NCBI GenBank assembly: GCA_043755105.1
Contig: JAYUUC010000375.1
Location: 53,611-117,610, forward strand
Direction of reading: 5' to 3'
DNA from: Myxococcales bacterium
GTDB taxonomy: Bacteria > Myxococcota > Myxococcia > Myxococcales > Myxococcaceae
DNA length: 64,000 nucleotides
The translations under genes were made by a program, and so were the position numbers. The notes beneath the pieces were generated by a model. That model was not told where the DNA came from. It saw nothing but the letters and a program-made list of their open reading frames with translations, and made no database searches. Shown piece by piece: positions 42,322 through 62,652 of the stretch (within the stretch, counting starts at the first letter, position 1; every line of letters begins with the position of its first letter).

Positions 42322-45300
42322 ATGGAACTCCCCAGCCAAAGCAACGCGACGGGCATGCTCATCGACGGCATCGCCTGCTCGGAGGCCATCGACACCTCCG
42401 GCGAGGTGCTCGACGTGGCTGGCTCGGACATCTCCGACGTCGAAGCTGGGCTCGCCACCCTGAACTGGGAGCATCGGGACGACGAATCCCAGGGTGCCTC
42501 CGCGCTCGACCACGTGGGCAAGATCATCTACGTGAAGAAGATCTTCAAGTCGGCCGACTGCGAGAACGACCGCCAGCGCTACTTCTGGGACCAGGTGGAG
42601 CTGCCCTTCATCTACATCATCGGTCGCCTCTTCGACGGGGCTGGTCACGCGGGCGCTCTGGCCCTGGCCGCCATCATGCGCGACCAGATCAACAACGGGG
42701 AGAAGCTCTTCTGCCGGTTCTCGGTCGAGGGCAGCACCCTGAAGCGCGACGGCAACCGGCTCAAGACCACCATCTTCCGTCGCTGCGCCGTCACCGTGAA
42801 GCCAGCCAACCGCTCGGCGAACACGGGCGTCTTGGCCGACCCACGCCCACCCCCGGGTGTCACTGCGGCCAAGCTGAAGGACCTGCCTACCGATGAGGAG
42901 ATCGAGAAGTCTCTCATCATCGACCCGATGTACCGGCACCTGGGCTCGTTCGAGATGGAGTACGACCCCATTCTCAAGGCCGAGGACATGGGCGGTTACA
43001 ATGCCCCTCCGAGCACCCTGACGAACGGAGCGGCCCTCATGCGTGAGGACCGGGCCCTGCGCCAGCGCTGGACTGCCATGGCCAAGGCGGCCTACCGGGA
43101 CCGCCCCAAGGACGGCACCCCCTTCCAGCGCTTCCTGAAGTTCCGGATGCCGGACGCGGACCCCAGCTTCATCGACGCCTTCGCAGCCATGGCCGACGAC
43201 TACCACCTCCACAAGGGCGAGATGAACGACACCCAGGTGGAGACCGCGGTCCTGGACTACCCGGAGTCTCTGGGCAAGGCCGAGAACGTGGCGCTCGAGG
43301 AGCCTCAGGTCTCGCCGAAGGTGCCTGGCAAGGAGAAGGAGGTCCCGAAGAAGGAAATCATGAAGATGCTGCCCGAGCACGCCGCCAAGTTCAAGCGCGT
43401 GGTCGGCTCATCGGGCCGCCTGGTGAAGAAGAAGGCCGACTCCTACTTCGATGAGAACACGGGCGTGCTCCACACCCACGTGGGCTCGTTCCCCATGCAC
43501 ATCCCGAAGGACCAGGGCTACCTGGACATCCTCAACGCCCCGGAGACCAGCGAGCCCCACGACGCGGCTGTCAAGAACTGGATCCACCTCAACAACGCCC
43601 TGAAGGCTGGCAAGCTGCCGCCCGAGGTGGCCATGCACGCGGCCCTGTTCTCAGGCATGTCCCCTTCGGCCCCGGTGCCCCTCCAGGAGATGGCGTACTC
43701 GCACCTCCAGGACATGATGGGCAACGGCCTCGACCCCACCAAGTCGGGCGCCACCTCGGATGCTCTGCGGGAAGAGTTCATCAACCGCACGGGCCCAGGC
43801 GGCCCCCTGCCGGAGTACATGAAGGAGTTCTGGGCTGGTCCGGGCGGCGCTGCCACTCGCACCCAGAAGGGCAGCGGGAAGCAGCGAGGCATCCTCTACC
43901 CCGGCCAGAAGTGGTACGCGGTCGAGAACTACAACCGCTTGCACCCCTACCTCAACCAGCTGATCGACCAGCACCGGGGCGACGTCCGCTCGATCACCGA
44001 GGACCTGCTCCAGAACAAGGGCGCGGCCCAGCTCCACGACGCCAAGGCCAAGCGCGACGCGGCCAAGGGCATCGTGACTCCCGACTACGAGACGACCACC
44101 GGGAAGTCGGCGGTGAAGGGCTACGCCCCGAAGACGGTGCGCTACCTCTTGGGCATGCTGGGGGGCGGCAACGTCCACGTCCCCGACACCCACTTCATCC
44201 GCCACACCTTCGGCCTCCCCACGGACGGCGAGATCAAGGACCAGACCGAGAAGCACCTGGGGCGCAAGCTCCGGGAAGGCCCCAAGACCCAGGAGGTCGG
44301 CTTCACCCCCAACGAGCACCTCAAGGACATCCTGTGGGACGATTCGGTCGCGGGCCACATCGGCTCGCAGATGGATCGCTACTACGCCCAGCACCACCCG
44401 GTGGTGAAGCACGTCGCTGAGCGACACGGGCTCGACCCGCAAGACGCCCTGTTCCCGGCCTTCTGGAAGCACTGGCTGTCCATTGCTCCGGATGAGCGGC
44501 GCCGGGGTATCTACAACGAGAACAACCAGGAGGGCACCGACCACCGTGTCTACTGGAACATGGTCAACAAGATCATGCAGAAGTACGGGCTGCCCAACAA
44601 CGGGCTCATCAAGGCCGACCCGGAGAAGCCCGAGGTCAAGCCCCCGTTCGAAGAGGCCGATTCGCGATTCGCGGACATGCCCCCGCACATCCGCTCGGCA
44701 ATGGCGATGAACACCATCCACCAGCTCTTCGGGCCAACGGGCGCCCAGTTCCACTACTACCACTCGATCGTGCCTCTGCTCATGCAGGTGGCCCGGAAGC
44801 GCGAGCTGTACGAGGAACCCGAGGCCGAGGTGGCCAAGTTCGAGTCGATGCTGGTCGACATGCGCAAGGCTGCCAACGAAGCCACGGAGGAGCTGAAGAA
44901 GCCCCTCGAGGTGGTCTTCCAGGGCAAGCGCATCCAGCCTGGCAAGGGTGAGTTCGGCGTGAAGCCCCCGAGCTACCCGGACTTCAACTTCAGCATCCTG
45001 GGCAAGGACCACCGGCACTACTTCGTGGTCCACCCGAGCAGGCTCCCCAACTTCAAGGCCAAGGACATCGCCAAGATCCCGCGTGACCGGGAGAACTTCA
45101 CCTACCAGGTCAACGACCACCCGAAGGACCTGGACGCCAAGGCCATCGTGGACTCGGCCGTCCATGGTCTGCCGGACCTCAATACCTCGAAGGAGCAGCA
45201 CGACCTGGTGCATGGCCTGCTCCTGAACAACAACCCCATCAATGCTCCGGCCGGGGCGATGACCCAGGACTTCCTGGGGGTGAAGAACTCCGAGTGGCGG

Positions 45301-61296: not shown

Positions 61297-62652
61297 ATGA
61301 AAGTCATCGTCTACAACCTGCTCGACAAGACCACCGAGACCTACGAGGGCGACCGGCCCACCATCTACGCCAAGATGGCTGCGGACTTCCCCTGGTACGA
61401 CAACGAGGACACCGCGGGCGACGTCGACCGGCTGGTAGAGCTGGTGGCTCGAGACCAGTACTTCCAGGTGCAGGTCGAGCACGACCCCTTGTACTTGCAG
61501 AAGAACGACGAAGACGCCCAGGGCTCGGTGGCCCACATGCTGGGGCACAACTACATCGACTGGCCCGAATTCAAGGCTGCGGCGGTCCTGGCTGGCGACC
61601 ACGAGCCCTCGGCCCACGACATCCGTGTGGCGCTGATGGAGCATGAGCAGGACCGCGTGGCGATGGCGCTGATGGCCTACGGGCTGCCGGTCGATGACGA
61701 GCACCGGGAGTCCATCCAGGCCATCCTCGACGTGCAGGAGCTGACCAAGGGCAACGACATCGAAGGGGAGGCGCCGGTCCAGCCCCAGTCGATCGAGGCC
61801 TTTGCTTCCGAGGGTGAGGAGACGGCCGAGGCCATTCGACGGGCCTTCAAGCGCCACCAGGTCTTCAACGTCAAGCTCAAGGGGAAGCACTCGTCGGGCT
61901 CGATGATCGCCAAGGACCCGGACAGCCACAAGTCCTGGCTCATCAAGCCGGGCTCGACCACGCAATCCCCAGCCCTGGGAGCCCAAGAGGATGCCTCGAG
62001 CCAATCCCAGCGTGAGGCGGCCTTCTACTACCTGGCCAAGGCCTGGAACCTGGACCAGTACCTCCCCCAGTGCGACCTCCTGCTCGTGGATGGGTCGACC
62101 CACTGGGCCGTGATGGAGCTGATTCCCAAGGACTACTTGTCCCTCCAGGAGTCAATGAAGGCCAACGTCAGCGGGACGATGAACCTCCTCAACCAGTACC
62201 GGCTCGAGGGGACTCTTCATCGTTGGGGCGCGCTCGACTTCGTGGGCGGCAACACGGACCGCCACGGCGACAACGAGATGGTCGACGACGAGGCCACCCG
62301 GGTCTACCTCATCGACCACGGCTCGTGCTTCGCGGGCAAGTCCTTCGACCCTGCGAGGGACAAGTCGACCTTCATCCCCTACTACCTGCGCCCCTGGTCG
62401 ACCTACACCAACTCGAAGCTCCAGCAGCTGTCGTTGCCCGAGCGTGTGGCCCAGCTGCCGGACACCTCGAGGGAGGGCGAGCTGATGCTGGCCCACTGGC
62501 TCAAGGACATCCACGCCGACTCGATGAAGGCCATCCTGCACCGGTACGGCATCAACCCCGAGCCAGAGCTTCAGCGCCTCGCACAACTGAAGCGCCTGGC
62601 TCTGGCCCAGGGACCCTCGAAGGCCGTCAACCTGCTTTGGGCAGGTGCCTGA
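61297..62652 (+). CDS. 451-aa protein with a C-terminal atypical kinase module (third paralog)
   Basis: WLIKPGS, QREAAFYYLAKAW, AVMELIP, VGGNTDRHGDNEMV (DRH at 62257-62265) and YLIDHGSCF (62311-62322). Confidence 0.75.
   Translation: MKVIVYNLLDKTTETYEGDRPTIYAKMAADFPWYDNEDTAGDVDRLVELVARDQYFQVQVEHDPLYLQKNDEDAQGSVAHMLGHNYIDWPEFKAAAVLAGDHEPSAHDIRVALMEHEQDRVAMALMAYGLPVDDEHRESIQAILDVQELTKGNDIEGEAPVQPQSIEAFASEGEETAEAIRRAFKRHQVFNVKLKGKHSSGSMIAKDPDSHKSWLIKPGSTTQSPALGAQEDASSQSQREAAFYYLAKAWNLDQYLPQCDLLLVDGSTHWAVMELIPKDYLSLQESMKANVSGTMNLLNQYRLEGTLHRWGALDFVGGNTDRHGDNEMVDDEATRVYLIDHGSCFAGKSFDPARDKSTFIPYYLRPWSTYTNSKLQQLSLPERVAQLPDTSREGELMLAHWLKDIHADSMKAILHRYGINPEPELQRLAQLKRLALAQGPSKAVNLLWAGA

Follow-up and report, generated by a model that had tools for sequence, protein, structure and literature searches.

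A 64,000-nucleotide stretch of DNA (contig JAYUUC010000375.1, positions 53,611 to 117,610 of the forward strand; GenBank assembly GCA_043755105.1 of a Myxococcales bacterium), here called the window, was found to encode three kinase modules in the structural region of an Mx1-like phage. The modules, K1, K2, and K3, are located in proteins of 1277, 890, and 451 amino acids (aa), which are referred to as P1, P2, and P3, respectively. Judged from profile matches, conserved residues and one predicted fold, they are true kinase-like domains of the phosphatidylinositol 3-kinase/phosphatidylinositol 4-kinase (PI3K/PI4K) branch of the protein-kinase-like superfamily, and they are probably active phosphotransferases. 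K1 is fused to a prohead protease and K2 to a Nudix hydrolase. We consider it fairly probable that the three kinases, which represent old subfamilies, are effectors that are loaded into the virion and act on the host.

Kinase Modules of the PI3K/PI4K Type

An earlier sequence-only reading of this DNA had placed three kinase modules in large open reading frames (ORFs) of the forward strand. All three ORFs are present, every motif quoted for K1, K2, and K3 was found, and the module coordinates were right to about 100 nucleotides (Table 1). For P1, an upstream TTG at 42313 would serve as an alternative start and give a protein of 1280 aa. A six-frame scan of the window with one hidden Markov model (HMM) per module detected K1, K2, and K3, and no fourth module.

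The catalytic-loop segment of each module matched the Pfam profile PI3_PI4_kinase (PF00454), with E-values of 7.7e-5 for K1 (23.1 bits), 1.9e-3 for K2 (18.6 bits) and 7.7e-6 for K3 (26.4 bits); the profile alignment spans only about 40–60 residues. Relatives of K2 and K3 scored above the gathering cut-off of 27.1 bits (47.9, 35.2, 35.2, and 28.5 bits), and 31 of 40 members of the K1 family matched the profile at E ≤ 0.01 (best E 1.5e-8). An AlphaFold2 model of P3 based on 22 homologs had a mean predicted local distance difference test score (pLDDT) of 88.5. When this model was compared to PDB structures with Foldseek, 159 matches at E ≤ 1e-3 were obtained, and the top 50 were all PI3K, PI4K or mTOR. 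The best matches (E 2e-6 to 1e-4) included VPS34 (1.9e-6), PI3K-gamma and PI4KII-alpha (5.8e-6), and PI4KII-beta was also among the leading matches. The template modelling (TM) score compared to PI4KII-alpha was 0.47–0.48 on the target, and the sequence identity to PI3K and PI4K structures was 12–16%. Searches of PDB sequences with the single sequences of K1, K2, and K3 gave nothing significant (best K2 to FAM20A, E 0.03), and a profile of 40 P1-like proteins found PI4KII-beta only, at a non-significant level. K2 also showed a weak match to Fam20C (E 4.7e-4; 20.3 bits vs. a cut-off of 26.8 bits).

The residues expected of an active kinase were highly conserved in the families of K1 (96 sequences), K2 (26 sequences) and K3 (40 sequences). 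The ATP-anchoring Lys was kept in 92/96, 26/26, and 39/40 sequences, respectively, and the Glu of helix alpha-C in 94/96, 24/26, and 39/40. For the DRHxxN loop, the catalytic Asp was present in 96/96, 25/26, and 39/40 and the Asn in 93/96, 26/26, and 39/40, and the metal-binding Asp of IDxG was found in 94/96, 26/26, and 40/40. All five catalytic residues of K3 were invariant in the K3-family alignment A1. The proposal of homologous PI3K/PI4K-type modules is thus upheld by the PF00454 matches, by the fold match of K3 and by catalytic residues that are kept in the homologs of all three families. Neither outcome that the sequence-only reading had named as refuting it, absence of a kinase-like fold or loss of the DRH and IDHG residues in homologs, was observed. 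A kinship to HipA-like kinases, which had also been suggested, did not emerge: HipA_C was absent from the Pfam matches at E ≤ 1, from the PDB sequence matches and from the top 50 folds, no dedicated HipA profile having been run.

The modules could instead be inactive pseudokinases or structural domains kept as scaffolds or binding modules, and the sub-threshold Pfam scores in the window, together with the VDNS of K2 in place of IDHG or IDHS, would fit such a role. However, the five catalytic residues are present in all three modules and highly conserved per family. The Asp of the K2 motif SVDNS is invariant, the family consensus being IDHS, and the residue that follows it is H, N, T or Q in members that are otherwise intact. 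This pattern points to purifying selection on the active site, and a loss of activity is therefore very improbable.

Table 1. Features of P1, P2, and P3 and of other genes in the window (window positions).
Feature	Position	Strand	Remarks
P1: prohead protease, motif similar to the major capsid protein, conserved middle domain, K1	42322..46155	+	1277 aa from ATG
HK97-type prohead serine protease domain of P1 (~aa 8–180)	42343..42861	+	His51 (NWEH), Ser134 (FSVEGS)
25-aa motif directly after the protease domain of P1	42976..43050	+	KAEDMGGYNAPPSTLTNGAALMRED
Middle domain of P1 (~aa 340–750)	43339..44571	+	Invariant K604, D622, H624, R627; AlphaFold pLDDT ~95
K1 module	45163..46152	+	K1004, E1026, D1107, N1112, D1130 (ATG numbering); VFVKAG 45322-45339, RNEIAYHNLA 45391-45420, GNSDRHQGNFML 45631-45666, LIDHG 45703-45717
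P2: Nudix, hydrophobic segment, conserved region, LRV/HEAT-like repeats, K2	58613..61285	+	890 aa, polyvalent-type
Nudix hydrolase domain of P2 (aa 3–115)	58619..58957	+	PF00293 E 9e-22; PHROG 1198 E 5.8e-16
K2 module	60206..61282	+	K622, E645, D731, N736, D750; FMLKP 60467-60481, WAEMANQGLYH 60539-60571, NNLDRHHNNLLY 60794-60829, SVDNS 60854-60868
P3: conserved N-terminal region without assigned function, then K3	61297..62652	+	451 aa; 24 homologs
K3 module	61894..62649	+	K217, E240, D321, N326, D340; WLIKPG 61936-61953, QREAAFYYLA 62008-62037, GNTDRHGDNEMV 62248-62283, LIDHG 62308-62322
Major capsid protein	49985..51388	+	PHROG 752 E 3.9e-38
N-terminal segment of the major capsid protein matching the P1 motif	50021-50095	+	KALDAGASNAAPSTLVQGSALMVED
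280-aa structural-module protein directly 5′ of P2	57761..58603	+	PHROG 772 'tail fiber protein' E 2.5e-17
Portal protein	33840..36035	+	PF04860 E 2e-14; start of the head module holding P1
DnaE-type polymerase III alpha with PHP domain; class II ribonucleotide reductase; GroEL/Cpn60-like chaperonin	6711-11903, 15680-17794, 21409-23271	–	Three genes, listed jointly

Relationship and Distribution of the Modules

Pairwise BLASTP comparison showed similarity between K1 and K3 (E 1.5e-8; 24% identity over 260 aa) and between K2 and K3 (E 6e-4), and nothing significant between K1 and K2. Comparison of the family profiles with hhalign paired K3 with K1 at 99.4% probability (E 3.7e-21), K3 with K2 at 96.4% (E 1.1e-9) and K2 with K1 at 95.6% (E 1.1e-8). 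Since all three are paired in this way, with a similarity far above chance, the modules are homologous on profile evidence. Each module scored 420–590 bits with the HMM of its own family compared to 20–60 bits with the other two, the identity between modules is 15–25%, and separate orthologs of each were found in other phages. A recent triplication was ruled out by these identities and by the own-family compared to the cross-family scores. The description of the kinases as triplicated therefore holds for the presence of three homologous modules but not for a recent duplication; by their sequences they are very old paralogs, that is, three deeply diverged subfamilies that reside together.

The modules were found to recur together in Mx1-like phages of about 165 kb, with two to four per genome. 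By a pattern scan of IMG/VR, 33 contigs were found to carry K3, 12 to carry K2 and 5 to carry K1. Classification with HMMs showed a tandem of K2 followed by K3 in at least 11 contigs, and K3 at the end of ORFs of about 700–2000 aa (measured from stop to stop) in about 19 contigs. All three modules lie within 12 kb in IMGVR_UViG_3300028559_000026. Several relatives, including L049 (IMGVR_UViG_3300049846_001695), L012, and L030, carry four modules in a row (K2-like, K3-like, K2, K3) or two K2 and one K3, and the kinase complement was seen to differ strongly from relative to relative. Genes for NAD salvage (NAMPT/NAPRTase and nucleotidyltransferase) and for an mCpol-domain protein were observed near the kinase genes of two relatives (L003, 13405-15449; L005, 19534-21314), and these may be tied to a nucleotide- or NAD-centred counter-defence.

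The nearest isolate to the source of the window is Myxococcus phage Mx1 (OR576727), a 169.6-kb myovirus with the same gene order. Its orthologs of P1, P2, and P3 are WNM70322, labelled 'putative prohead protease' in GenBank, WNM70333 ('NUDIX hydrolase') and WNM70334 ('kinase'). Both the protease-K1 protein, whose K1 reads DRN...IDNA, and the K3 protein are found in Mx1. Because the Nudix protein of Mx1 ends in a ParB-like region in place of K2, this phage has two modules and not three.

A scan of 185,579 species-representative genomes yielded one true K3 relative, which lies in a metagenome bin on a contig of 17.7 kb, and some distant actinobacterial proteins. P3 itself showed a weak match to the SCO1664 family (TIGR03843), to which the distant actinobacterial proteins appear to correspond. 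As K3 is nearly absent from the cellular genomes scanned, its lineage is essentially viral.

Most bacteria lack phosphoinositides. This counts against the modules being true phosphoinositide kinases that phosphorylate phosphatidylinositol lipids of the host, although PI3K and PI4K provide the closest folds and profiles. The low identity to these enzymes and the alignment of nothing but the catalytic-loop segment to the Pfam profile argue in the same direction. In addition, no lipid-binding or activation-loop features of phosphoinositide kinases were identified in the modules, and their nearest cellular relatives appear to be the uncharacterised SCO1664-family proteins of actinobacteria. A phosphoinositide substrate is accordingly regarded as highly unlikely.

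Prohead Protease Fused to K1

The N-terminal domain of P1 is a genuine HK97-type prohead protease, as the sequence-only reading had indicated for the partner of K1. His51 and Ser134 were identical in 150/150 homologs, and PHROG 1028 ('head maturation protease') matched 17 of 40 P1-like members (best E 2.2e-6). An AlphaFold model of residues 1–900 (pLDDT 79.9; about 90 at residues 8–180) was found by Foldseek to match many annotated HK97-type prohead proteases in BFVD (E 1e-7 to 1e-4; best 3.8e-7), among them the protease of Staphylococcus phage qdsa002 (TM score 0.71; root-mean-square deviation 3.5 Å). The best BFVD match of all (E 1.4e-20) was a 584-aa protein of an uncultured phage that is named 'PI3K/PI4K catalytic domain-containing protein' in UniProt. 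The fold matches that identify the protease all came from BFVD; the same model gave nothing significant compared to PDB folds, and Pfam peptidase profiles did not match P1 or the P1-like proteins. The P1 gene is located between those for the portal and the major capsid protein (MCP), the canonical position of the protease, as in Mx1.

The fusion is widespread. A search with the first 330 residues of P1 among 1.84 billion representatives gave 782 clusters at 50% identity, 373 of them at E ≤ 1e-30. In all of the best 150 of the 782 clusters the protease domain was at or near the N-terminus of proteins of 330–1950 aa, and 99 of these 150 had a K1-type kinase at the C-terminus, so that the protease-kinase design comprises at least 99 clusters at 50% identity. 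The shortest such proteins (about 555–640 aa) consist of protease and kinase only, without the middle domain. A word-indexed homolog search had found 2 K1 relatives only, a count that is a sensitivity artefact in view of the K1-bearing clusters obtained by the exhaustive search with the N-terminal domain.

Directly after its protease domain, P1 contains a 25-aa motif that resembles the N-terminus of the MCP. The two segments are identical at 16/25 residues with the common pattern KA.D.G..NA.PSTL..G.ALM.ED, and in six frames of the window the motif was found at these two places and nowhere else. The sequence KALEAGxYNAAPxTLxQGxALQxEDLSPVM opens more than 20 Mx1-like MCPs; its counterpart in the P1-like proteins of Mx1 and of relatives L007–L009 is KALEAGxYNxAPGTLTGGxALQRED. 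Among 40 P1-like proteins the motif positions were at least 90% conserved. Prohead proteases commonly trim the N-terminus of the MCP, and the shared motif is likely a cleavage or docking site common to P1 and MCP.

The middle domain of P1 has the conserved pattern APKT...GNVxVPDTHFxRHxFGL. No significant match to this domain was found in PDB by profile, fragment phmmer or Foldseek searches. A resemblance to HhH-GPD (endonuclease III-like) glycosylases, suggested by the pattern APKT...VPDTHFIRH with a Lys and an Asp 18 residues apart, found no support, as there was no match to EndoIII or MutY and the best related Foldseek match in PDB was QNG1/DUF2419 (E 2.6).

P2, P3, and Their Polyvalent Context

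The Nudix domain that had been read at the N-terminus of P2 was confirmed (Table 1), but a transglycosylase was not, as no Pfam, PHROG, NCBIfam or PDB sequence match was obtained for aa 160–540. The assignment had been made for a region that is kept in Mx1 (..LESGFG..GPLGLK..FYNA..) and lies past a hydrophobic segment following the Nudix domain (aa 144–208, 59042-59236; VTAIMAAAMLGIAPSP). Nor did P2 resemble the lytic transglycosylase (SLT, PF01464) gene that a related contig carries, and the pattern ES...GLGLK...YN was recognised by eye only. Residues ~340–520 of P2 look like repeats of the LRV/HEAT type, and an ortholog gave a weak LRV match.

The order of genes for a 136-aa protein, a 280-aa protein, the Nudix protein and the kinase is kept in relatives, and the genes flanking P2 and P3 match structural PHROGs, including PHROG 772 and PHROG 1004. 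In relatives the Nudix protein is a mosaic, in which Nudix is combined with GNAT, ART-PolyVal, PBECR5, DUF3626 or ParB and with K2 or K3. The Mx1 ortholog and L029 contain ART-PolyVal, L027 contains PBECR5, several proteins including the K2 protein P0036 contain GNAT, and ParB occurs in P0009 and in members of the P1-like alignment. None of ART-PolyVal, PBECR5, GNAT, and ParB was found in P2 of the window. Two unrelated domains are thus combined in P1 (protease and kinase) and in P2 (Nudix and kinase), and P3 alone has one recognised domain; in many relatives K3 is fused to a large protein that usually bears Nudix. Polyvalent proteins have been argued to be packaged and injected with the DNA (Iyer et al., 2017; PMC5512222), and by analogy P1, P2, and P3 may be assigned to this class.

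Proposed Function of the Kinases

The kinases are probably present in the virus particle, since one is fused to the capsid-maturation protease and two are in or beside a polyvalent-type protein. Because K1 is carried as C-terminal cargo by the prohead protease of the phage itself, the P1 polypeptide would be taken into the prohead during assembly. The protease may then cut, or dock itself, at the MCP-like motif after its domain, and if it cuts, some 1030 aa of cargo, comprising the middle domain and K1, would stay behind in the head. The kinases would be delivered with the incoming DNA, or be at hand around it, and could phosphorylate host targets (protein, possibly lipid or small molecule) and in this way aid takeover or blunt defence. 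The case is strongest for K1, owing to its covalent link to the protease and the MCP-mimicking linker, and weaker for K2 and K3, for which the polyvalent context and the structural-gene neighbours can be cited. The role of capsid-packaged or ejected effectors put forward in the sequence-only reading is strengthened by this context and is plausible.

Several points weigh against this interpretation. Proteases of the HK97 type often undergo degradation and disappear once the head has matured, so that K1 may fail to remain there. The MCP-like motif is missing from P2 and P3, in which no capsid-targeting signal could be recognised either. The PF00454 scores of K1, K2, and K3 are all under the gathering cut-off, and the fold comparison covers the K3 model, to which K1 and K2 are tied through hhalign. 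Finally, in the polyvalent proteins of Iyer et al. (2017; PMC5512222) assemblin-like peptidases are always C-terminal, and the kinases are of a different type.

All three kinase genes are located in the late structural region, and K1, being tethered to the prohead protease, would sit in the prohead beside scaffold and MCP. The kinases might thus be morphogenetic, acting on scaffold, capsid or neck proteins of the phage during assembly and not on the host after ejection. The weak Fam20C matches of K2 also fit, as the proteins modified by Fam20 and CotH kinases are secreted or structural; CotH phosphorylates spore-coat proteins, and vaccinia F10 acts in virion morphogenesis. We nevertheless regard this as unlikely, as K2 and K3 are accompanied by Nudix, ART-PolyVal, PBECR5, and GNAT, which are typical host-directed effector domains, and three separate assembly kinases would be unprecedented. 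Moreover, Mx1 is entirely without K2, which shows that K2 is not an essential assembly function.

A role as non-packaged cytoplasmic enzymes was given a similarly low probability. Here, the products of the late operon would act on small molecules, lipids or signalling nucleotides, for instance in counter-defence together with the Nudix domain and the GGDEF cyclase, both of which are neighbours of the kinases. Many kinases of the protein-kinase-like fold act on small molecules or lipids, the best structural match is the lipid kinase PI4KII-alpha, and Mx1 has been found to escape an island of cyclic-oligonucleotide-based anti-phage signalling (CBASS) and type III CRISPR (PMC11506125). However, unless P1 is incorporated into the capsid, it is difficult to account for a K1 joined to a prohead protease with an MCP-like motif, and late expression would be ill-timed for counter-defence unless the product is carried to the next cell.

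A broader proposal can be made, which we advance tentatively and hold to be less probable than not. The protease family of 782 clusters, large and so far undescribed, may be a vehicle that loads enzymatic cargo, mostly a PI3K/PI4K-like kinase, into capsids, with the MCP mimic as a signal for processing or docking. In that case as many as four such kinases would be injected by Mx1-like phages, together with Nudix, ART, and GNAT domains, and would reprogram phosphorylation or signalling of the host at DNA entry.

Source Genome and Neighbouring Genes

The window was taken from a contig of 163.6 kb. Its MCP is 52.8% identical to that of Mx1, and a blastn search with the region found nothing in the phage collection; the kinship with Mx1 is visible at the protein level only. 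From this kinship the hosts are likely myxobacteria, which are very rich in Ser/Thr kinase signalling. The escape of Mx1 from the CBASS/type III CRISPR island mentioned above is attributed by the authors to countermeasures that they left unspecified (PMC11506125). Kinases are not discussed in the Mx1 genome announcement and are not mentioned in a 2026 survey of myxophages.

On the reverse strand, the three genes listed jointly in Table 1 encode the DnaE-type polymerase, a ribonucleotide reductase of class II that depends on B12, and a chaperonin resembling GroEL/Cpn60. Also present in the window are a helicase gene and a terminase-like ORF with an intein. The latter (1066 aa; 29601-32801, forward strand) occupies the place that the large terminase has in Mx1. 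A LAGLIDADG homing endonuclease (E 2.7e-24) and a Hint module were recognised in it, and it is apparently a terminase interrupted by an intein.

A 487-aa protein encoded directly 3′ of P1 (46159-47622, forward strand) contains a GGDEF diguanylate-cyclase domain (Pfam E 9.2e-13) with an intact GGDEF motif, and its Mx1 ortholog is labelled 'nucleotide cyclase'. Judged from this domain, the gene is a putative phage cyclic-nucleotide synthase within the capsid genes. Between it and the capsid genes, an ORF on the reverse strand (47417-48193) has a Cys-rich DHDHATG...C..CN pattern that resembles those of endonuclease VII/HNH homing endonucleases. Just upstream of the MCP, a 414-aa low-complexity protein rich in Pro, Ala, and Gly (48685-49929, forward strand) showed no family match and is possibly a scaffolding protein.

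Comparison with Known Systems

Kinases of phages are emerging as tools for takeover and anti-defence, and those known are early cytoplasmic Ser/Thr kinases of the gp0.7 type or truncated kinases of polyvalent proteins. What is distinct here is a lineage of PI3K/PI4K fold that appears essentially confined to viruses, in two to four diverged copies, with one copy welded to the capsid-maturation protease. A search of the literature gave nothing relevant on PI3K/PI4K-type kinases in phages or virions. The view that such kinases had not been described in a phage structural region therefore stands in so far as no paper on this kinase type was found, but the concept has been published and database labels exist. 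Automatic or terse labels (GenBank 'kinase' for Mx1, and the UniProt label above) are already known, and injected kinase-bearing polyvalent proteins were described in 2017 (PMC5512222). No paper was found on a viral PI3K/PI4K-fold lineage in two to four diverged copies, on its fusion to an N-terminal protease in at least 99 clusters, or on the MCP-mimicking linker. If the cargo is delivered, phages would have a novel and, it appears, widespread means of placing effectors in capsids, as well as a set of injected kinases. Direct testing is possible, as Mx1 is culturable and its host genetically tractable.

The proteins P1, P2, and P3 resemble the polyvalent proteins (PMC5512222) in their location among virion genes and in their predicted packaging and injection, and P1 and P2 also in combining unrelated enzymatic domains. 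The class signatures ART-PolyVal, PBECR5, GNAT, and ParB occur in P2 orthologs, and kinase domains are listed for the class. However, the kinases of that class belong to a truncated Ser/Thr/Tyr clade without C-lobe from prophages of Verrucomicrobia/Chlamydia and Bacteroidetes, and the main text of PMC5512222 makes no mention of kinases of the PI3K/PI4K type. In addition, P1 has its protease at the N-terminus, and this protease is the one that serves the prohead of the phage itself.

Compared to PF00454 and type II PI4K, the modules show the same order of Lys, alpha-C Glu, GxxDRHxxN loop and IDxG Asp. In contrast, they lack helical or C2 accessory domains, occur with a bacterial host and are unlikely to act on phosphoinositides.

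The kinase gp0.7 of phage T7 is an early, non-virion protein of a different kinase lineage, present as a single copy and without fusion to a structural or Nudix protein. In phosphorylating host proteins for takeover it is comparable to the role proposed for K1, K2, and K3, and it is cited as a precedent in PMC5512222. Similarity to kinases of the FAM20C/CotH type was seen in the DRHH..N...DN motif of K2 and in its weak Pfam and PDB matches to Fam20C and FAM20A. However, the K2 family has the consensus IDHS as in K1 and K3, and K2 is closer to these modules than to Fam20.

In lambda C/Nu3, a single reading frame holds the protease and, C-terminal to it, an assembly domain. In T4, Alt and the internal proteins IPI-III are taken up by the prohead, undergo processing by its protease and reach the host together with the DNA; to our knowledge, no kinase cargo is known from T4 or lambda. 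The cargo proteins of T4 are separate and carry a short capsid-targeting sequence, whereas the cargo of P1 is covalently joined to the protease by a linker that mimics the N-terminus of the MCP.

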